Part shown: positions 46,227 to 55,212 of the stretch, piece after piece
Numbering within the stretch: the first letter of the stretch is position 1
Layout of the letters: the number at the start of each line of letters is the position of its first letter
Assembly (NCBI GenBank): GCA_023444045.1
Contig: JAEZRQ010000006.1
Span: forward strand, 113,786 to 177,785
Source: Candidatus Parcubacteria bacterium
Lineage (GTDB): Bacteria; Patescibacteriota; Patescibacteriia; Patescibacteriales; UBA12465
Length of the DNA: 64,000 nucleotides
Direction of reading: 5' to 3'
Translations under genes and position numbers: made by a program
Notes under the pieces: generated by a model
The model's database searches: none
The model's input: the letters and a program-made list of their open reading frames with translations, nothing else
Told to the model about the DNA's origin: nothing

Positions 46227-47705
46227 TTAATTAGTAGTTTGAATAATCACCGGATCTCCAGTTGGATACATCGCTAGAAGTTGTGGTGACACTTTAATTA
46301 CGTTAGTGAATTTATAACCCAAGCTTTCAAAAATTTCGCCACTGGTGAAGGGCCTCTTTCTCCCTTGTGATATAAGGTAGACAGTTGGGGAACTCTCAGA
46401 CATCAATAATTCACCATCACCAAAGATAACCGGTGATCCTTTGGTATATTTTTCCAGCTCAGCTGTTGTTCCTTTATTAACTTTTTTCCCTTTAAATTTA
46501 GTGCTTAAAAATATTTTATCAATAATAGGATATTTATAGCCACTTTCTACATAGTAAACGCCACCACTTTTGGGATCTTGAACTAATCGACCTGTCGGAT
46601 ACGTTGATGTAGCAGTAATAACCCTTCCTTCGCTATAGGCAGCTAATTCTTCACTAGTTGCTTTAATAATCTCTTCTTTATTAAAACCAATCTGTTTAAA
46701 GACGTCTTGAGAGGCGATTAATCTTTTTTCAGTATCAACAATTAAATAAACTTTTTTATCTGGAGTTTCAATTAGGGAGTAATTAGGGAACTTTATTGGC
46801 TCACCTTTAGAATAAGCGTCTAAAACAGTCGCTTCAATATTAATTATTTTATTAGGATCAAAGCGGGAGATAAGGGCGCTATAACTAGTAAAGGGTCTTT
46901 TTTGACCGTTTTGAATAAGCCAAACTCCTGGCTCTCCGGCTACTTGTAACAGGGAACCGTCAGGGTAGTTTTGGATAACATCCGGAAAATATTTGTTATA
47001 CAAAATATAAAAATTATAATTTCCGTTAAATACATGCGGAGTGTAATTATATAAAGCGGCCGTAGCTTTATTCTCAGGAGTTACCACCATTGGCTCTTTA
47101 GAAATAGTGCCATAAGGGTTGGTAAAGGTATAAGTTTGTCCCATTTTATAAGGATAGCGCTGTTGTTCGTTCATGTAAGCAAGAAACTGTAGAGCAGCAC
47201 TGTTTATTTGTTTTCCTAAGCCTTTATAATAGGGGTTGCAAGCGGCACTATCAGGGCAGCCGTAACCAGTGGCCCAATCAAGTCTAGCTTGAGCTGGACT
47301 AGGATTTTCAATTAAACTAGATTCTTTTTGCAGTAAGGTGATAATAACTTTCGGTGAGATAGTGGTAATGCTGCGGCATTTAATGCGCCTCATCTCTTCG
47401 CTAGGATTGTCTCCAAGATCAACGCCAGAGCAATCATAGTTATTGTTAGCGGCATCATAAATTATCTCCGCCGCGCTTTTAACTGTTCCGTAAGCATTAA
47501 TAGTGGTATAAGAAGCCAGATAACTATTTTTGTTAGCTAAAAGTTGTTGAATTTGCGACACACTTAAGCTTTTAACATCCATCATTTCAGCGTCTTCAAT
47601 TATTCTATTAGGATTAAAAGTGGGGTCTATCTCTTGAGCGGCACTAGGAAAAAAGGGAATAAACAAACCCATTAAGAGTAAAGACGTTAAAATTTTCTTT
47701 GGCAT
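46227..47705 (-). CDS. Secreted protein with four C-terminal ~55-60-aa repeats; possible cell-wall-binding or hydrolase protein
   Basis: Signal peptide (MPKKILTSLLLMGLFIPFFPSAAQ). N-domain with LLQKESSL. Four repeats of the pattern VYLI..G.KRPF.S...F.S.G....I..V....L..Y..G.P. Confidence 0.7.
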   Translation of the reverse strand: MPKKILTSLLLMGLFIPFFPSAAQEIDPTFNPNRIIEDAEMMDVKSLSVSQIQQLLANKNSYLASYTTINAYGTVKSAAEIIYDAANNNYDCSGVDLGDNPSEEMRRIKCRSITTISPKVIITLLQKESSLIENPSPAQARLDWATGYGCPDSAACNPYYKGLGKQINSAALQFLAYMNEQQRYPYKMGQTYTFTNPYGTISKEPMVVTPENKATAALYNYTPHVFNGNYNFYILYNKYFPDVIQNYPDGSLLQVAGEPGVWLIQNGQKRPFTSYSALISRFDPNKIINIEATVLDAYSKGEPIKFPNYSLIETPDKKVYLIVDTEKRLIASQDVFKQIGFNKEEIIKATSEELAAYSEGRVITATSTYPTGRLVQDPKSGGVYYVESGYKYPIIDKIFLSTKFKGKKVNKGTTAELEKYTKGSPVIFGDGELLMSESSPTVYLISQGRKRPFTSGEIFESLGYKFTNVIKVSPQLLAMYPTGDPVIIQTTN

Positions 47706-47816: not shown

Positions 47817-50456
47817 TTAAATAACACTAACTACCAACTCTTCTTCCTTTTCTTTATTAATTTCTATCTTTACCTTATCACCTTCTTTAACCTTACCCTC
47901 AATGATTTCTAAGGCTAGTTCATCAAGTAATAATGTTTGAATAACTCTCTTAAGCGGTCTGGCGCCATAGGTTGGGTCATAGCCTTTCTCGGCTAACATC
48001 TTTTTTACCTTAGGCCCTATTTTTAAAGTAATATTTTTATTATGAAGTCGGCTTTCTACTTTTCTAAGCTCCAAATCAACAATCTTTTCTAGCGCTTCCT
48101 TACTTAAGCTTTTAAATAAAACAATCTCATCAATTCTATTTAAGAACTCTAATTTAAAGTGATCACGTAAGATTTTATCAATCTTGTCTTTCATTTCTTC
48201 TTGGCGCAGATTGTTTTTGTCATCATTTTCCCCAACATTAAAGCCGATAGTATATTGCTTAATAATTTCGTTGCCTAAATTAGAGGTCATGATAATAATA
48301 GTATTTTTGAAGTTAACTGTTCGCCCCTTAGAATCTGTTAGCCGACCATCATCTAAAATCTGGAGTAGCATATTAAAGGTGTCTGGGTGAGCCTTTTCAA
48401 TTTCATCGAACAAGACCACAGAGTAAGGGTGACGTCTAACCCGATCAGTTAATTGTCCGCCGTCATCATGTCCGATATAGCCAGGAGGTGAACCGATTAA
48501 TTTAGCAACTGAGTGTTTTTCCATAAACTCACTCATATCAATTCTGATTAAAGAGTTTTCGTCATCAAAAATAAAACGAGCCATTGCTTTAGCTAATTCA
48601 GTTTTACCAACACCAGTCGGACCGACAAATAAAAATGAGCCAATTGGTCTTTTCTCCTCATTAATACCAGCCCGTGAGCGGCGAATAGCGTTAGAAATAG
48701 CTTTGATGGCTTCATCTTGGCCAATAACTTCGTTTGTTAAAACTTTTTCAGCTTCGCCTAATTTTTTGGCTTCGGAATCTAGCATTCGTTGAGCGGGAAT
48801 ACCAGTCCAACGAGCCACTACTTTGGCAACATCTTCTTCATCAACTTCTTCTTTAAGGATTCTTTGCCCTTTCTTCTGAATCTTAATTAATTCATCTTGA
48901 AGTTTGGTGATATTATTTTCTAATTCCGGAATCAAGCCATATTTTATTTTCGCTACTTCTGTTAAATCTGATCCCTGTCTTTGGATTATTTCGGCTTTTG
49001 TTTTTAATTCTTCTATTTCTTTTTTAGACTTTCTAATATCGGAAATAATATTTTTTTCATTACTCCAATGTAGTTCCAGCTGAGATGATCTCTCCTTAAG
49101 TTGAGCTAGTTCTTGGTTTAGAGTTCGCAATTTGCCAGTTTTTTTATCGGCGGTTAAAATCGCCGCCTTATTAATTTCTAGCTGTTTTATTTTTCTTTTT
49201 AACTGATCAAGTTCTTCTGGCATAGAATCAATTTCCATGCGTAGGGAAGAAGTAGCTTCATCAATTAAATCAACAGCTTTATCAGGTAAAAAGCGATCGC
49301 TGATATAGCGGTTTGATAATTTAGCGGCCGCAATTAAAGCATCATCAGTAATTCTCACGCCGTGATGTACTTCATATTTTTCTTTTAAACCACGGAGCAT
49401 ACTAACAGTATCTTCTACACTCGGTTCATTAACTAAAATCGGTTGGAAACGTCTTTCCAGGGCCGCATCTTTTTCAATATATTTCTGGTATTCTTTAGTG
49501 GTGGTGGCGCCAATTGTTCTCAGTTCTCCTCGAGCTAAAGCTGGTTTTAACATATTAGAGGCATCCATTGCTCCTTCGCTAGCTCCGGTTCCCACTAGAG
49601 TATGAAGCTCATCAATAAAGAGAATAATATTGCCGTTATGTGATTTCACTTCTCTAAGCACCGCTTTTAAACGGTCTTCAAATTCGCCACGGAATTTAGC
49701 TCCCGCTACCAAAGCCCCTAAATCAAGAGCAATTACTTCTTTATTTTTTAAATTCTCAGGAACATCACCGGTAATAATTCTCTGAGCCAAACCTTCAACA
49801 ATTGCTGTCTTTCCGGTTCCTGGTTCTCCAATTAAAACTGGATTGTTTTTAGTACGGCGGAGTAGGATTTGCATAATACGACGGATTTCTGTATCACGTC
49901 CAACTACTGGATCAAGCTTTTCCTGTCTGGCCAGTTCAGTGAGATTGCTAGTGTATTTTTCTAAAACATTTATTTTGTTTTCTTGGTGTTGATCGGTAAT
50001 TTTAGAATCCCCCCTTAACTCCTTTAAAACTTCTTTAACAACCTGATATTCAGCTTTAAAGTTAAGTAAGATTCTTTGAGCAGTTGATTCTACGCCAATT
50101 AAGCCCAACAGGATGTGTTCGGTAGAAATAAATTCGTCGCCCATACCATCAGCTTCTTTTTGAGCTCTTTCTAAAATCATCACTGTTTCATTGGTTCCAG
50201 ATACCGCTTGAATTGGCCCTTCACTCATTCTAACTTTTTCTTTAGGGAGTTTGTTTATTTCTCGGTTGGCAGCATCCTCAATCATGTCCGGATCAACCTT
50301 AATTTTTTCTAGTAGTGGCTTAATGAGACCCTCGTTTTGTTGGAGCAGGGCTAGTAAAATATGCACCGCCTCAATATTTTTTTGGCCATTGGTGGTAGCA
50401 ATAATTTGAGCATTGATAATAATTTCTTGTGACCTATCAGTTAATTTATTAAACAT
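47817..50456 (-). CDS. clpB: Hsp100/Clp disaggregase, ClpB-like (two AAA+ modules, long coiled-coil middle domain)
   Basis: Clp_N domain. D1 Walker A GEPGTGKT and Walker B ILFIDELH. About 125-aa coiled-coil M-domain. D2 Walker A GPTGVGKT and Walker [11 protein letters not shown]. Also carries an IGF tripeptide (48240-48248) in a ClpC-like insert. Confidence 0.93.
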
Positions 50457-50484: not shown

Positions 50485-50511
50485 TTAGCACTCTAACATT
50501 ATGAGTGCTAA
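50485..50511. promoter_or_regulatory. CIRCE operator (HrcA binding site)
   Basis: Perfect match to TTAGCACTC-N9-GAGTGCTAA (TTAGCACTCtaacattatGAGTGCTAA), 4 nt downstream of the clpB -10 box. Confidence 0.9.
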
Positions 50512-50515
50512 TTTC

Positions 50516-50544
50516 ATCATACTATAGCTATTTAACTATGTCAA
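50516..50544 (-). promoter_or_regulatory. clpB promoter
   Basis: On the minus strand: TTGACA (50544-50539), 17-nt spacer, TATGAT (50521-50516). CIRCE lies just downstream of the -10 box and would cover the predicted start site. Confidence 0.65.
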
Positions 50545-50586: not shown

Positions 50587-50949
50587 ATGGATTATAATTT
50601 TCTTACTCATTTTGGGAAGGTTTTGTGGCAGGTAATCTGGGACTTTATTTACTTTCCGTTGTGGTGGTATAGCGCTGGTCTTTTAAGAATAATTAAAAAA
50701 ATTAGTAATTTTTATCGCCACCGTGAAGAATCTTTAGCTCTGACTATCTGGCTGAAAAATATCTTTACTCCAATGTATGGACAGTGTGATTTTTCTGGTC
50801 GTCTAATCTCGTTTCTTATTCGCTTCGTTCAGATAATTTGTAGAGGTTTTTTAATGTTGTTAAACATACTTTTAGGCTTAGCTTTTTTAATTTTTTATCT
50901 ATTACTACCACCAGCAATTCTACTGGGTATTTGGAAACAAATTTTTTAA
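50587..50949 (+). CDS. Small polytopic membrane protein, hypothetical
   Basis: About 120 aa with 3-4 hydrophobic/aromatic helices. Ends 3 nt before the membrane-anchored Clp paralogue. ATG 50587 preferred to GTG 50557. Confidence 0.6.
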   Translation: MDYNFLTHFGKVLWQVIWDFIYFPLWWYSAGLLRIIKKISNFYRHREESLALTIWLKNIFTPMYGQCDFSGRLISFLIRFVQIICRGFLMLLNILLGLAFLIFYLLLPPAILLGIWKQIF

Positions 50950-50952
50950 AAT

Positions 50953-53631
50953 ATGAATGAGGAAAAATTAACTTTTGAATATAATGAAAAAATAAAGAGA
51001 ACAGGCCTCTGGTATTTAGGTTGTTTTTTATTTTTTAGTCTTACTTTAAAAAAATCGCTGATTACTTTAAATAAGACCTTAAAATTAATTAGAAAAGTAG
51101 TTGATTTTATTGCTTTTTTTATTGCCGCTTTAGGGTTGGTGGCCCTTGTCTGGTTTATTTATGAGCAGCGTTTACTTATTATTAGTACGCCGCTTTATTT
51201 ATTAAAACCGGAGTATTACCAGCACCCCTTGTTATTAGTTTTTTTGCTCAGTCTAATCTTTGATTTATTTTTATACTATCGTTTCAGTTTAAGAAACGAT
51301 CAGAAACAAAAACTGGATTATAATAAATTAAAGATTGATGAAACCAGTGGCCAATTTAAGAAAGTAAAACAATTTAATTTTGCTAACGCTTTAGATGAAG
51401 AGTCTCTAGGTGTTATTGAAGAAGCTTATATTTTAGCCGTTAAATTAAAACAAGCCGAGGTGACCCCGCGCCACATTTTTCGGGTGTTGTTAAAGAATAG
51501 AAAAATCCAAGCTTTATTTATTCGTTTGGGAGTAAATATTAATTCTCTAGTTGAGAAGCTAGATCGTAATTTATTAAATGATAGTAGTTTTTCTAAAAAA
51601 CCAGTGCTATCTGCTAAGACAAAAGAGCTAATTGTTTTAGCGGGACTAGAAGCTTATAAAAGAAAGCAGGAGGCAATTAGGGTACTTGATTTAACTTGGC
51701 CTTGTTATTCCCAAGATGAGGTTTTAGCTGAGGTTTTATATGATTCAGAAGTAGATGAAAATAAAATAAAAAATGTTATCGCTTGGTTTAGGGTCAACGA
51801 AGAATTACTTAAGAATTATCAAGAATATCACCGGGCGGCTATTTTAAAGCCTTGGGGCAATATGAATAGGGCTTATACGGCGGTGGCCACTCCAACCCTT
51901 GATCATTTTTCTAGTGATCTAACAATGTTAGCTCGGGCTGGAAGATTGGATTTATGTATTGATAGAGTTAAAGAATTTACCGCCATTTTTGATGCCTACT
52001 CCGGAGGGCAATCTGGTGTTTTATTAATTGGTCCTACGGGTGTTGGTAAAAGAACTATTGTTGAGGGACTGGCACAAATGATGGTTAAAGAAAGTGTGCC
52101 AAAATTTTTGCAAGACAAGCGTTTAGTGGAGCTTGATGTGGCGGCCTTGGTTTCTGGTGTTTCGCCGGCTGAAGCTCAGGAACGTCTGCTTATTTGTATC
52201 AATGAAGTTAATCGTGCTGAAAATATTGTGCTCTATATTCCTAATATTGAAAATCTCATGGGTATTACTTCCGGTAGTGAAGAAAGCTTAGAACTATCTG
52301 AAGTATTATCAAGTGCTCTTAACAAACAGGCTCTATTTTGTATTTCCACCACTACTACCGAAAATTATTCTCGTTTTATTGAGGGCAAGTCTCTGGGTGA
52401 AGCAATGACAGCGATTGGCGTAGCTGAACCTAACTTTAATCAAACTATTCAGATTCTTGAAAGTAAAGCTGGCTCTTTTGAAGCGCAATACGGTATTTAT
52501 TTAACCTATGACGCTTTAGAAAAAACCGTCACCTTATCCAACAAGTATCTAAGGGAGAGCAGTAATCCTCTTAAGGCAATAAATTTATTACAAAAAGCGG
52601 CCGCTATTTCTAATAAGGAGGCTCGCAATAATCCTGATAAAGTGATTTGTGACGGTGAAGTGGTAGCATCAGCTATTGAAGATTTAACCGGTATCCCCGC
52701 CAGCAAAGTTTCAGAAAACGAAAGACAAAAATTAATCAACTTAGAAGCTAGTATTCATGCCCGCATGATTGGACAGGAGGAGGCAGTTAAGGTTGTTTCC
52801 GCTTCACTGCGCCGAGCTAGGGCTGATCTTAAAGATAGTTCCAGGCCGATTGCTAGTTTTTTATTTTTAGGGCCAACTGGTGTTGGTAAAACGGAACTGG
52901 CAAAAAGCGTTTCGGAAATTTACTTTGGTTCAGAGGATTATATGATCCGTTTGGATATGAGTGAATACCAAGAAGCAAATAGTGTGACAAAAATGATTGG
53001 TGGTGTCGATGGTACTCTTGGGTATTTAACTGAAGCAGTGCGTAAAAAACCATTCGCTTTGATTTTGCTTGATGAAATTGAAAAGGCTAATCCGGATATC
53101 TTAAATCTATTTTTACAATTGCTTGATGATGGCCGTTTAACCGATGGGCAGGGGAGAACGATTAATTTTTCTCAATCAATTATTATTGCGACTTCTAATA
53201 TCGGCTCTATTTTAATTCAGGATGGTATTAAGCAGAATTTAGATATTAATATTATTAAACAGGAACTAATTGATAATCAGTTAAACAAGTACATGCGGCC
53301 GGAGCTTATCAATCGTTTTGACGGCATCGTGGTCTTTAAACCATTAACGGAAGAAAACCTTATGGCAATTGCTACTTTAATGCTGAAAAAAATCAAGAAA
53401 AGTTTGGAGAGTAAAGGTATTAGTTTAAAAGCTGATAAAGAAGGGGTCGCGATTTTAGCTCGGGCTGGTTATGACCCAAAGTTTGGCGCTAGACCGCTAC
53501 GAAGACTTTTACAAGAAAGAGTGGAAGATGAAATTGCTAATTTACTTTTAGCTAATAAATTAAAGAGGAGAGATACGGTTTTAATAAATTCTGATGGTAG
53601 TATAGGTGTAGAAAAGGGTCGGGAGTTATAA
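50953..53631 (+). CDS. Membrane-anchored Clp/Hsp100-family AAA+ protein with degenerate first ATPase module
   Basis: About 115-aa N-terminal region with three TM helices, then Clp_N repeats. D1 has GPTGVGKR but VLYIPNIENL in place of Walker B hhhhDE (IPN at 52237-52245), and lacks the ERRF Arg motif. No coiled-coil M-domain. D2 is intact ([29 protein letters not shown]). Confidence 0.85.
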   Translation: MNEEKLTFEYNEKIKRTGLWYLGCFLFFSLTLKKSLITLNKTLKLIRKVVDFIAFFIAALGLVALVWFIYEQRLLIISTPLYLLKPEYYQHPLLLVFLLSLIFDLFLYYRFSLRNDQKQKLDYNKLKIDETSGQFKKVKQFNFANALDEESLGVIEEAYILAVKLKQAEVTPRHIFRVLLKNRKIQALFIRLGVNINSLVEKLDRNLLNDSSFSKKPVLSAKTKELIVLAGLEAYKRKQEAIRVLDLTWPCYSQDEVLAEVLYDSEVDENKIKNVIAWFRVNEELLKNYQEYHRAAILKPWGNMNRAYTAVATPTLDHFSSDLTMLARAGRLDLCIDRVKEFTAIFDAYSGGQSGVLLIGPTGVGKRTIVEGLAQMMVKESVPKFLQDKRLVELDVAALVSGVSPAEAQERLLICINEVNRAENIVLYIPNIENLMGITSGSEESLELSEVLSSALNKQALFCISTTTTENYSRFIEGKSLGEAMTAIGVAEPNFNQTIQILESKAGSFEAQYGIYLTYDALEKTVTLSNKYLRESSNPLKAINLLQKAAAISNKEARNNPDKVICDGEVVASAIEDLTGIPASKVSENERQKLINLEASIHARMIGQEEAVKVVSASLRRARADLKDSSRPIASFLFLGPTGVGKTELAKSVSEIYFGSEDYMIRLDMSEYQEANSVTKMIGGVDGTLGYLTEAVRKKPFALILLDEIEKANPDILNLFLQLLDDGRLTDGQGRTINFSQSIIIATSNIGSILIQDGIKQNLDINIIKQELIDNQLNKYMRPELINRFDGIVVFKPLTEENLMAIATLMLKKIKKSLESKGISLKADKEGVAILARAGYDPKFGARPLRRLLQERVEDEIANLLLANKLKRRDTVLINSDGSIGVEKGREL

Positions 53632-53649: not shown

Positions 53650-55212
53650 ATGGTTTTTTTGGCAGCATTTTTGCTATCTTTGTTTTTAACAATCGCTCTT
53701 ATCCCAGTCTTAAAAAAGATAGCGCTTAAATATCAGATTGTAGATCAGCCTGATTTTGTAAGGAAAATTCATTCTAAAACAATCCCACTCTTAGGTGGAG
53801 TTGCGATTTTTATTGCCTTTTTTGCCGTCATCTTTTTATTTTCTGATCAGATTTTGCAAGGTGATTTAAGACTATCTCACTGGCTTGGCTTCTTGATCGG
53901 CGGTCTTTTTTTGATTGTCGGCGGTATTTTTGATGATAAATATAATTTAAGTCCAAAAATCCAAATTATTTTTCCCATTCTAGCAGTCATTTCTGTTTTG
54001 TTGGGTGGAGTGGAAATAGCCAAACTTTCTAATCCGGCCGGTGGTACTTTTAATTTATCGGCAATCAGTTGGTTTTCGCCACTTTTTATTTCTTTGTGGT
54101 TGCTGGGGATGATGTATACCACTAAACTGCTTGATGGGGTTGATGGTTTAGTCGGCGGCGTTTCCTCTATTGGTGCTTTAGTGATTTTCTTATTTACTCT
54201 AACCACAAAATATTATCAACCAGATATTGCTTTTGCTTCTTTGGTTTTGGCCGGAGCAATTTTAGGTTTTTTGATTTTTAATTTTAATCCGGCTTCTATT
54301 TTCTTGGGAGAGGGCGGGGCTTTATTTTTGGGTTATACCCTGGGGGTGTTAGCGATTATCTCTGGCGGCAAAATCGCTATTGCTCTACTTGTGATGGGGG
54401 TGCCAATCTTAGATGTCGCCTGGACAATTATTCGTCGTCTACTGGCAGGAAAAAACCCTTTTAAAGCAGCTGACAAAAAACACCTGCATCATCGCTTACT
54501 TGATTCTGGTCTAAGCCAAAAACAAACAGTCTTTGTCTTTTATTTTTTAGCGGCTGTTTTTGGGGTTTCCGGTTTATTCTTGCAGAGCCAAGGGAAGATT
54601 ATTTTTTTAGGGGGCATTGTGGTGCTAATGTTTTTACTGGTTATCTTTTTGTCACTTGTTGTTAATAAGAAAAAAAATAAACCAACCCTTTTACTCCATG
54701 TCTGTTGTGCTCCTTGTAGTGCTTATATAATCAAGGAAATTTTAAGCAAAGATTTTAAAGTAACAATTTATTTTTATAATTCTAATTTGTCTTCAGAAGA
54801 GGAATATGACGCTCGTTTAAAATGGGTACGTTTTATAGCTGATATTTACCAGCTAGATTTAATCATTGAACCGTATCAGCATTCTAATTGGTTAAGTAGA
54901 GTAAAGGGCCACGAAACTGACCCAGAAAAGGGAACTCGTTGCTTAATTTGCTATGAGGACCGTTTAGAAAAAACCGCTTTACTAGCCAAAGAAAAAAACT
55001 TTAATTATTTTTCTACTAGTCTATTAGTTTCCCCCTATAAGGATAGGGAGGCATTATTAAGAATTTCTAAACAACTGGCCGTAAAACATCAAGTTAATTT
55101 TTTAAATGAAGATTTTAGTTCCGAGGGCTTATACCGTAAGTCGCAAGATTTAGCTAAAGAACTTGGTGTTTATCGCCAAAAGTTCTGTGGCTGCGAATTT
55201 AGTAAACGTTAA
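53650..55212 (+). CDS. Fusion: MraY/WecA-type polyprenyl-phosphate sugar-1-phosphate transferase (GT4) plus QueH-like epoxyqueuosine reductase (DUF208)
   Basis: N-terminal ~335 aa are polytopic with MraY/WecA-like motifs (IFDDKYNLSP, LLDGVDGL, NPASIFLGEGGALFLGY). C-terminal ~180 aa carry QueH signatures LLLHVCCAPCS, RCLICYEDRLEKTA, YRQKFCGCEFS. Junction at an A8 run (54670-54677). Confidence 0.85.
   Translation: MVFLAAFLLSLFLTIALIPVLKKIALKYQIVDQPDFVRKIHSKTIPLLGGVAIFIAFFAVIFLFSDQILQGDLRLSHWLGFLIGGLFLIVGGIFDDKYNLSPKIQIIFPILAVISVLLGGVEIAKLSNPAGGTFNLSAISWFSPLFISLWLLGMMYTTKLLDGVDGLVGGVSSIGALVIFLFTLTTKYYQPDIAFASLVLAGAILGFLIFNFNPASIFLGEGGALFLGYTLGVLAIISGGKIAIALLVMGVPILDVAWTIIRRLLAGKNPFKAADKKHLHHRLLDSGLSQKQTVFVFYFLAAVFGVSGLFLQSQGKIIFLGGIVVLMFLLVIFLSLVVNKKKNKPTLLLHVCCAPCSAYIIKEILSKDFKVTIYFYNSNLSSEEEYDARLKWVRFIADIYQLDLIIEPYQHSNWLSRVKGHETDPEKGTRCLICYEDRLEKTALLAKEKNFNYFSTSLLVSPYKDREALLRISKQLAVKHQVNFLNEDFSSEGLYRKSQDLAKELGVYRQKFCGCEFSKR

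Follow-up and report, generated by a model that had tools for sequence, protein, structure and literature searches.

The stretch of DNA analysed here, the window, comprises 64,000 nucleotides of contig JAEZRQ010000006.1 from Candidatus Parcubacteria bacterium, and all positions given below refer to it. It contains a pair of open reading frames (ORFs) on the plus strand that code for a predicted membrane-anchored paralogue of the Clp/Hsp100 ATPases, here designated TM-Clp (TM for transmembrane), and for a small membrane protein, referred to as the partner. An initial annotation had placed the small ORF 3 nt upstream of an 892-aa Clp paralogue, and the coordinates of both were confirmed (Table 1). 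An alternative upstream GTG start would make the small protein 130 aa long; the 120-aa start is preferred because most homologues measure 119–125 aa, many of them exactly 120 aa. The two ORFs share a reading frame and are split only by TAA AAT, and read-through of the stop codon would yield a fusion protein. The shared frame is probably incidental, because the frame relation is not kept in relatives (e.g. locus L001).

TM-Clp was compared with other sequences at two depths. The close homologues formed 120 clusters with a query coverage of 100%, of which 55 were aligned. The distant set consisted of 84 full-length superfamily representatives, 24–48% identical in the N-terminal region, and motif counts over the superfamily are reported per 85. 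Motifs were compared by BLASTP against the neighbouring ClpB, by a MAFFT alignment and by a HMMER alignment to E. coli ClpB. Hydropathy was calculated on the Kyte-Doolittle scale for the window protein and averaged over the 55 aligned homologues, and both structures are AlphaFold2 (AF2) monomer models.

TM-Clp has the layout of a class-I Hsp100 protein, that is, a Clp_N domain followed by two AAA+ modules in tandem, D1 (of the classical AAA type, with AAA_lid_9) and D2 (of the AAA_2 type, with ClpB_D2-small). The Pfam match to Clp_N was weak (residues 158–205, 1.5e-4); those to AAA_lid_9 (496–590, 6e-11), AAA_2 (631–790, 2.7e-52) and ClpB_D2-small (798–877, 2.4e-23) followed in that order. A profile of the first 345 residues matched the N-domains of Plasmodium HSP101 and S. 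aureus ClpC in the PDB with E-values of about 1e-6. In the BLASTP comparison with the neighbouring ClpB, D1 (34% identical) and D2 (44% identical) aligned as two separate blocks, and the HMMER alignment to E. coli ClpB likewise gave two blocks. The AF2 model had a pLDDT (predicted local distance difference test) of 80.5 and a pTM (predicted template modelling score) of 0.69, and its top Foldseek matches were ClpC chains, including those in ClpC-ClpP complexes, and ClpB chains. The Clp_N-D1-D2 order proposed at the outset was thus borne out by Pfam, by the profile of the N-terminal region and by the sequence and fold matches in the PDB.

Assignment to a curated Clp family was not obtained. All Clp equivalogs of NCBIfam scored far below their cut-offs, with 552 versus 1232 bits for ClpB (TIGR03346), 457 versus 993 bits (TIGR02639) and 325 versus 1350 bits (PRK11034) for ClpA, and 409 versus 885 bits for ClpV; the ClpA model spans residues 154–878 of TM-Clp. 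There is no M-domain, as had been noted from the sequence initially: the lid helix and the TGIP motif lie 36 aa apart, where the neighbouring ClpB has 155 aa between them, and TM-Clp thus lacks the site for coupling to Hsp70. No peptidase domain was present in the Pfam results and the protein has two rings, which separates it from the FtsH type with its fused M41 domain and single ring. The full length of about 890 aa is conserved in the 120 clusters, and the mean column identity over the 55 aligned sequences is 70%. Anti-phage defence ATPases were considered as an alternative identity and rejected; the PADLOC matches (DolB/Dodola and PDC-M37B, 1e-35 to 1e-28) covered only the generic D2 part (residues 522–866 and 584–758). 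The partner was unmatched in PADLOC. No defence context was found either, the neighbourhood being made up of housekeeping genes that are syntenic across species.

A membrane tether of three TM helices within the first ~115 aa had been proposed; the anchoring was retained, with two helices in place of three. Family-averaged hydropathy revealed two robust segments, at residues ~46–69 and ~88–108, separated by a short loop (70–90). The hydrophobic stretch 17–31 is weak, with a family mean below 0.7, and residues 8–27 are modelled as strands, and the three-TM topology was rejected. This strand region has conserved positions of its own (F8, G18, W20, G23 and F25). Within the second TM helix, D104 is invariant in a 16-sequence alignment (A2) and conserved to at least 90% in alignment A1. 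The anchor has basic flanks, with about 5 lysines and arginines in residues 32–48 and about 9 in residues 111–140, from which the positive-inside rule predicts an N-in/C-in topology. Taken together, hydropathy and the model indicate that the anchor is a hairpin of two TM helices in the cytoplasmic membrane. With the anchor at the N-terminus, any ring would turn its N-domain/D1 face towards the membrane. At least one hydrophobic segment within the first 170 aa was found in 85/85 superfamily representatives.

The D1 module combines a retained P-loop with degraded Walker B and arginine-finger motifs (Table 1). Among the 120 close homologues the Walker B motif mostly reads hhhhDN, and the arginine fingers are lost. 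In these alignments the change from Glu to Asn is typical of the family, and the additional change from Asp to Pro (PN), found in the window protein, is a feature of a sub-clade. In the distant representatives the position of the DE pair reads ED, EN, DN, PN or other combinations; the catalytic glutamate was present in 1/85 and the arginine pair survived in 8/85, and the P-loop lysine was retained in 72/85. The suggestion that D1 keeps its P-loop and is probably hydrolysis-dead was upheld by the alignments of close and distant homologues alike, and D1 is, as judged from its motifs, a hydrolysis-dead pseudo-ATPase.

The Walker A and B motifs, sensor 1, the arginine finger and sensor 2 of D2 are near-invariant in close and distant members. 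The initial annotation had called D2 fully canonical, which is correct for these catalytic motifs but not for the pore-1 loop, where the GYVG motif is deleted and five residues are missing throughout the family. GYVG stands against DGTL in the alignments; in that made with HMMER the GYVG tyrosine of E. coli ClpB falls opposite a threonine, with a five-residue deletion. The motif G[YFW][VIL]G is missing from 80/85 superfamily representatives. Distant members have a short, Gly-rich D2 loop that mostly lacks a hydrophobic residue (e.g. IGGA------GEGGQLTEA). Overall, the aromatic pore-1 loops, KYRG in D1 and GYVG in D2, are absent from both rings of TM-Clp, and this holds family-wide. One TM-anchored member of 912 aa (P0264) has IGAPPGY at the D2 pore position and keeps the arginine-finger pair in D1; in evolutionary terms it may stand between canonical Clp proteins and the family without pore loops.

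The segment between sensor 1 and the arginine finger of D2 is about 10 residues shorter in TM-Clp than in the neighbouring ClpB. The reported absence of an IGF/VGF-type ClpP-docking loop was verified by a search of this segment for the tripeptide [ILVM]G[FLIM], which was found neither in the window protein nor in 73/75 orthologues; as a positive control, IGF was recovered in 55/55 of the neighbouring ClpB-type genes. No ClpP gene was present among the scanned ORFs of the window (29.7–64 kb).

The partner had been described as a polytopic membrane protein of ~120 aa. Its length and membrane nature stand, but the protein is a two-helix hairpin with one strong C-terminal TM segment. In the AF2 model (pLDDT 92) two helices, each about 50 residues long (5–57 and 69–119), make up the hairpin, and their hydrophobic halves are an aromatic-rich part (residues 5–33) and a strong TM segment (residues 87–119). 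The former contains the conserved motif Y.P.WWY..G within residues 10–33, and the latter forms part of a C-terminal stretch of 34 residues that is very hydrophobic and variable in sequence. The hairpin tip is the best-conserved part of the protein, with columns that are invariant or at least 90% conserved (alignment A3 and a 54-sequence alignment), and it is also kept in the distant partners from loci L087 and L088. The tip arginines R72, R79 and R86 are spaced i, i+7, i+14, and from this seven-residue spacing they are taken to share one helix face; the charge distribution suggests that the tip is cytoplasmic.

The partner family comprises 53 homologous clusters, mostly of 119–125 aa. No Pfam, NCBIfam or PADLOC family was found for it, and Pfam gave no meaningful E-value for any of 46 members. 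Foldseek against the PDB returned no significant match to the fold (all E > 2), and a likeness to the TM hairpins of MsbA and the hairpins of Vipp1/PspA was weak, not significant, and was dropped.

The distribution of the pair was determined by searching a one-genome-per-species collection with family-specific peptide patterns, which yielded 337 confirmed loci; the neighbourhood counts refer to the best 80 of these 337. The N-terminal 320 residues of TM-Clp recovered 227 clusters at 50% identity. Informative titles among the best 80 loci name Falkowbacteria, the Patescibacteria group and Parcubacteria. Many third-party annotation (TPA) records of metagenome-assembled genomes (MAGs) are titled 'uncultured Gammaproteobacteria bacterium' (L007, L009, L010 and others), one 'Bacillota' and one 'Saccharimonadales'; these titles are read as placeholder or wrong taxonomy, because the gene block is the same as in the Falkowbacteria-titled loci.

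A profile hidden Markov model (HMM) of the partner detected the small gene directly upstream of TM-Clp, on the same strand, in all 75 testable loci of the best 80; in the other 5 the DNA on the upstream side measured less than ~450 nt. Over the 80 loci the two genes were separated by a median of 4 nt, and by at most 15 nt in 82% of them, with a few overlaps. The pair is also kept in L001–L006, which were reached via distant homologues of the small protein and of which one is labelled Buchananbacteria. In L087, where the genes overlap by 4 nt, and in L088 the N-terminal region of TM-Clp is 30% and 24% identical, respectively, and the upstream ORF matches the partner HMM at 1e-35. The survey thus extends to the whole testable set the coupling that had been noticed in the window, and genes so closely spaced may well be co-transcribed and coupled in translation. 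TM-Clp, its anchor and the gene pair are conserved beyond chance in hundreds of genomes of the Patescibacteria (Candidate Phyla Radiation, CPR).

Table 1. Features of the TM-Clp locus and its surroundings, in order of position in the window.
Feature	Position	Strand	Basis
Divergent ClpB-type Hsp100, 879 aa, with full M-domain and IGF loop	47817..50456	-	ORF, Pfam, NCBIfam
CIRCE, TTAGCACTC-N9-GAGTGCTAA, perfect match, belonging to clpB	50485..50511	.	Operator match
Best promoter-like site, TTGACA-17-TATGAT, 11/12 positions	50544..50516	-	Intergenic scan
Small partner gene, 120 aa	50587..50949	+	ATG at 50587, TAA stop at 50947-50949
Conserved hairpin tip of partner, W55..N58.F60.PMYGQ.D68..GR72..S75F..R79..Q82...R86	50749..50844	+	Alignments
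Spacer from stop of small gene to ATG of TM-Clp, 3 nt (AAT)	50950..50952	+	Sequence
TM-Clp, predicted membrane-anchored Clp/Hsp100 paralogue, 892 aa	50953..53631	+	ORF, domains, homologues, AF2
TM-Clp N-terminal residues 8-27, three short beta strands in model	50974..51033	+	AF2, hydropathy, conservation
Predicted TM helix 1, residues ~48-70	51094..51162	+	Kyte-Doolittle, family hydropathy ~2.2, AF2 helix 34-71
Predicted TM helix 2, residues ~91-110	51223..51282	+	Hydropathy, AF2 helix 92-117, conservation
Clp_N-type helical N-domain and long connecting helix, residues ~143-298	51379..51846	+	Pfam, profile search, AF2
D1 Walker A, GPTGVGKR, P-loop Lys kept	52030..52053	+	Alignment
D1 pore-1 loop position, SGVS-PAEAQERL, aromatic lost	52153..52188	+	Alignments
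D1 Walker B position, VLYIPN replacing hhhhDE, aligned to ILFIDE of ClpB	52228..52245	+	Alignments
D1 arginine-finger position, GEAM versus ERRF of ClpB, both arginines lost (EA for RR)	52396..52407	+	Alignments
D2 Walker A, GPTGVGKT, canonical (GPTGVGKTE)	52870..52893	+	Alignment; Lys in 85/85
D2 pore-1 loop remnant, IGGVDGTL-----GYLTEA, 5 residues shorter than in ClpB	52996..53037	+	MAFFT, HMMER, distant representatives
D2 Walker B, LILLDE, canonical (LILLDEIEKA)	53059..53076	+	Alignment; DE in 83/85
D2 sensor 1 (ATSN) to arginine finger (INRFD)	53188..53322	+	Alignments
D2 sensor 2, GARPLRR, canonical, inside D2-small domain	53485..53505	+	Pfam, alignment
WecA/TagO-like polyprenyl-phosphate GlcNAc-1-P transferase (GT4) fused to QueH	53650..55212	+	Pfam, NCBIfam

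The pair lies in a conserved gene block. In the clade of the best 80 loci this block consists of a Memo-like gene, a gene for a 492-aa protein and clpB on the minus strand, and of the small gene, TM-Clp, a GT4 gene (with or without QueH) and a YkuD gene on the plus strand. The GT4 gene, which codes for a WecA/TagO-like transferase of N-acetylglucosamine 1-phosphate (GlcNAc-1-P), follows TM-Clp in 76 of the 80 loci, and the remaining 4 end at contig edges. It is also found near the pair in L001–L005 and L087 and was not seen within 5 kb downstream in L088; it is possibly part of the same operon as the pair. In three lineages it scored higher with the NCBIfam model of WecA than with that of MraY, no score reaching the curated cut-off, and on these scores an identity as MraY was rejected. 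In the window the GT4 part (residues ~1–340) and the epoxyqueuosine reductase QueH (residues 347–520) are encoded in a single ORF, an odd functional pairing; some relatives encode the two in different reading frames, and distant relatives have GT4 alone.

The YkuD protein among the neighbours of the pair is an L,D-transpeptidase. In two distant lineages (L004:3506-6378 and L088:2669-4898) the pair directly follows mraZ, rsmH and an FtsL-like ORF with a single TM segment and a coiled coil. The order mraZ-rsmH-FtsL-like marks the start of the division and cell wall (dcw) cluster, in which ftsI and mur genes are expected next. Judged from synteny, the neighbours most likely point to a function in the envelope or in cell division. 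Two further ORFs of the window were recorded: a downstream protein of 791 aa with a Beta_propel domain (PF09826; 55857-58232, plus strand), and a conserved 492-aa protein without a Pfam or NCBIfam family (46227-47705, minus strand), which lies by clpB and the Memo-like gene and is syntenic in most relatives.

The pair is divergent from clpB, as the initial annotation had reported in calling clpB CIRCE-controlled, and the intergenic region of 130 nt between clpB and the small gene contains a CIRCE (controlling inverted repeat of chaperone expression) operator; the match is perfect, with ~0.02 matches expected by chance. The best promoter-like site lies on the minus strand, which places the operator in the leader of clpB. 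The proposed link of the pair to stress did not survive the comparison with relatives. CIRCE is found beside the clpB start in 62 related loci and stays with clpB when the small gene is 0.6–3 kb off (L008, L011) or lies on the strand of clpB (L079), and it is absent from the loci whose pair has no clpB neighbour. Control of the pair by HrcA and CIRCE was rejected on this ground. The adjacency to clpB is itself limited to one clade, the pair being found without a clpB neighbour in L001–L004, L026, L027, L036, L037, L046, L048, L087 and L088. Between positions 50516 and 50566 the -35-like hexamers of clpB (TTGACA, 50544-50539, minus strand) and of the small gene (ATGTCA, 50538-50543, plus strand) stand back to back, which suggests tightly packed divergent promoters.

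The neighbouring ClpB has peculiarities of its own. Its ClpB score was 1209 bits, where the cut-off is 1232 bits, it has a full-length M-domain with the distance given above, and it carries a docking tripeptide in the style of ClpC/ClpA (IGF, 48240-48248) that is kept in 55/55 orthologues. We take the IGF region to resemble the YVGFNV loop of ClpC. In combining a disaggregase M-domain with a ClpP loop, the protein appears to be the natural equivalent of the engineered 'BAP' ClpB.

The reading we prefer is that the pair forms a dedicated membrane complex in which TM-Clp acts as a non-threading ATPase, of a kind with Torsin or Pex1/Pex6 and unlike FtsH, that works with the partner. The findings at the sequence level are firm; the reading of function draws on sequences, models and analogy, and it is put forward tentatively, with slightly less than an even chance of being correct. 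Processive unfolding by the Clp/Hsp100 proteins depends critically on their aromatic pore loops, which are conserved (PMC5425593), and with no aromatic gripping loop in either ring of TM-Clp the threading of polypeptides is unlikely. D1 would serve as a nucleotide-binding pseudo-ATPase ring for holding the assembly together, as does D2 of NSF or D1 of Pex1/Pex6, and D2 would be the only motor. ATP turnover in D2 would bring about a conformational or assembly switch on the partner or, via the partner, on other membrane proteins. The arginine-lined cytoplasmic tip of the partner would dock on the membrane-facing N-domain/D1 side. The process served would most likely be the biogenesis of the cell envelope or of the division apparatus, a suggestion that comes from the gene neighbourhood.

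A more specific version makes the pair a mechanistic, and not an ancestral, bacterial counterpart of Torsin and its cofactors, with a D2 switch, an obligate partner with two TM segments docked on D1, and a role in the envelope or in division. The partner would then gate or transmit the D2 switch, and the complex would assemble or regulate WecA-type glycopolymer initiation and dcw-linked functions. We regard this version as speculative and rather unlikely to be right in full.

Several points weigh against a dedicated non-threading complex. The P-loop lysine of D1 is substituted in 13/85 distant representatives, which means that nucleotide binding by D1 is not universal. The clade of the window protein conserves Leu-Gly-Tyr (L689, G690 and Y691) in the shortened D2 loop, and the pore-2 regions are conserved; loss of the pore-1 aromatics argues against canonical threading and leaves translocation possible. 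The N-terminal anchor of the model sets the usual substrate-entry face beside the membrane, as an extractase would need. Synteny in the clade of the best 80 loci could be plain inherited gene order. Finally, it is from sequences and models that TM-Clp is taken to oligomerise, D1 to bind ATP, D2 to hydrolyse it and the two proteins to touch.

The main competitor of the non-threading complex is the first half of what the initial annotation had called a membrane-protein extraction or remodelling module; of the two, remodelling is possible and preferred, and extraction by threading of the FtsH/Msp1 type is disfavoured by the loss of the pore-1 aromatics. As an extractase or quality-control unfoldase, TM-Clp would be an anchored hexamer that pulls damaged or mislocalised membrane proteins through its channel, powered by D2 and with the partner as adaptor or delivery factor. 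The geometry of the anchor fits such a machine, as do the complete catalytic site of D2, a Clp_N domain that could bind substrates or adaptors, and the Leu-Gly-Tyr of the D2 loop in the clade of the window protein. Yet neither pore-1 loop has the canonical aromatic and most of the distant D2 loops lack even a hydrophobic residue, there is no ClpP-docking loop, fused peptidase or M-domain for Hsp70 coupling, and no stress operator is tied to the pair. Such an unfoldase is therefore judged unlikely, though it deserves serious consideration. An improbable arrangement is that TM-Clp serves as a membrane tether, co-assembling with or recruiting the neighbouring IGF-bearing ClpB and so bringing disaggregase or ClpP activity to the membrane. 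In the window, and likewise in the majority of the 80 closest loci, the two genes stand side by side in divergent orientation and their promoter-like sites overlap, and the D2 domains of the two proteins resemble each other at the identity given above; however, the adjacency is confined to one clade, and elsewhere the pair has no clpB neighbour.

The remaining explanations take TM-Clp for something ordinary or for nothing at all. Source annotations name it an 'ATP-dependent Clp protease ATP-binding subunit', which would make it a ClpC or ClpA with an unusual N-terminus that feeds ClpP. The best structural matches are indeed ClpC-ClpP complexes and the NCBIfam ClpA model can be aligned over its whole length, but the ClpA and ClpB scores are those of a non-member, the IGF/VGF tripeptide is missing from nearly all orthologues and kept in every neighbouring ClpB, the pore tyrosines are absent and D1 is catalytically dead, and we give this explanation very little credence. 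Even less can be said for a decaying, functionless paralogue, or for an N-terminal extension that is an artefact of gene calling. The degenerate D1 motifs, which vary among lineages, speak for decay. Against it stand the complete length and high column identity of the close homologues, the near-invariant D2 motifs, the conserved anchor and N-terminal residues, and the 337 loci in a one-genome-per-species collection, in genomes taken to be reduced; it is judged very unlikely.

As to novelty, the literature searched contained no relevant account of a membrane-anchored, pore-loop-less or D1-dead Clp protein in CPR bacteria or Parcubacteria. With NCBIfam scores below threshold, a partner without a family and a literature without a match, the opening remark that the locus cannot be mapped to a described system still applies. 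By these comparisons TM-Clp represents an Hsp100 subfamily that is undescribed and has an obligate partner; the curated families, structures and papers searched included none that matches it. The database name 'ATP-dependent Clp protease ATP-binding subunit ClpC' is misleading for the family. Hsp100/Clp proteins are the textbook threading machines, and the TM-Clp family, if our reading is true, shows such a motor reused for a task other than unfolding. Patescibacteria have small genomes, and their envelope and division biology is poorly understood; this conserved 892-aa ATPase, whose gene has those for a WecA-like transferase and an L,D-transpeptidase as neighbours, joined in some lineages by mraZ-rsmH and FtsL-like genes, is a concrete lead. 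The mode of action of Torsin is described as still unknown (PMC5425593), and a bacterial analogue of simpler build might be used to model it.

Among the known systems, TM-Clp shares with ClpA and ClpC the order Clp_N, D1, D1-lid, D2 and D2-small and, with ClpA, the lack of a long coiled-coil M-domain. Unlike these proteins it has a predicted two-TM anchor, has lost the Walker B motif, arginine fingers and pore tyrosine of D1, lacks the GYVG and IGF/VGF loops of D2, and scores less than half of the family cut-offs. Its highest sequence scores are with ClpB/Hsp104, and like E. coli ClpB it has no ClpP loop, but it differs in the missing M-domain and pore tyrosines, the dead D1 and the membrane anchor. 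ClpI of the Actinomycetota is an Hsp100 class recognised solely by bioinformatics in 2023, some sub-classes of which have no ClpP motif (PMC10149685). In contrast to TM-Clp, ClpI has intact ATPase modules and translocation motifs and an M-domain of ClpC length, and its description names no membrane anchor (PMC10149685).

FtsH and Msp1/ATAD1 are, as TM-Clp is predicted to be, ring-forming AAA+ proteins with an N-terminal TM anchor and an entry face beside the membrane. Each of them forms one ring, in which the pore loops are aromatic, and a protease is fused to FtsH; TM-Clp, by contrast, is a two-ring protein without pore aromatics or a protease. In Pex1/Pex6 the D1 ring binds ATP without hydrolysis and D2 is the motor. 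Pex1/Pex6 is described as a two-ring AAA ATPase whose recruitment to the membrane relies on a small membrane protein, Pex15 or Pex26 (PMC5762779, PMC9265785). It differs from TM-Clp in belonging to the classical AAA clade, in forming a heterohexamer that is itself soluble, and in threading its substrate through the pore.

Torsin is a relative of the Clp/Hsp100 proteins that has no aromatic pore loops, is associated with the membrane and depends on a membrane cofactor (PMC5425593). With Torsin and its cofactors LAP1 and LULL1, a system of the eukaryotic ER and nuclear envelope, the TM-Clp pair has in common the missing pore aromatics, the membrane association through N-terminal hydrophobic segments and a membrane protein as the putative cofactor, a likeness of functional class and not of homology. 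The differences are clear: Torsin is a single AAA ring without an arginine finger of its own, which is supplied by the cofactor, whereas D2 of TM-Clp keeps its own finger (NRFD) and is accompanied by a degenerate D1, and LAP1 and LULL1 have a degenerate AAA+ fold where the partner is a hairpin of 120 aa. As regards an active site completed in trans by an arginine of the cofactor, D1 is without an arginine finger and the partner carries the conserved arginines R72, R79 and R86.

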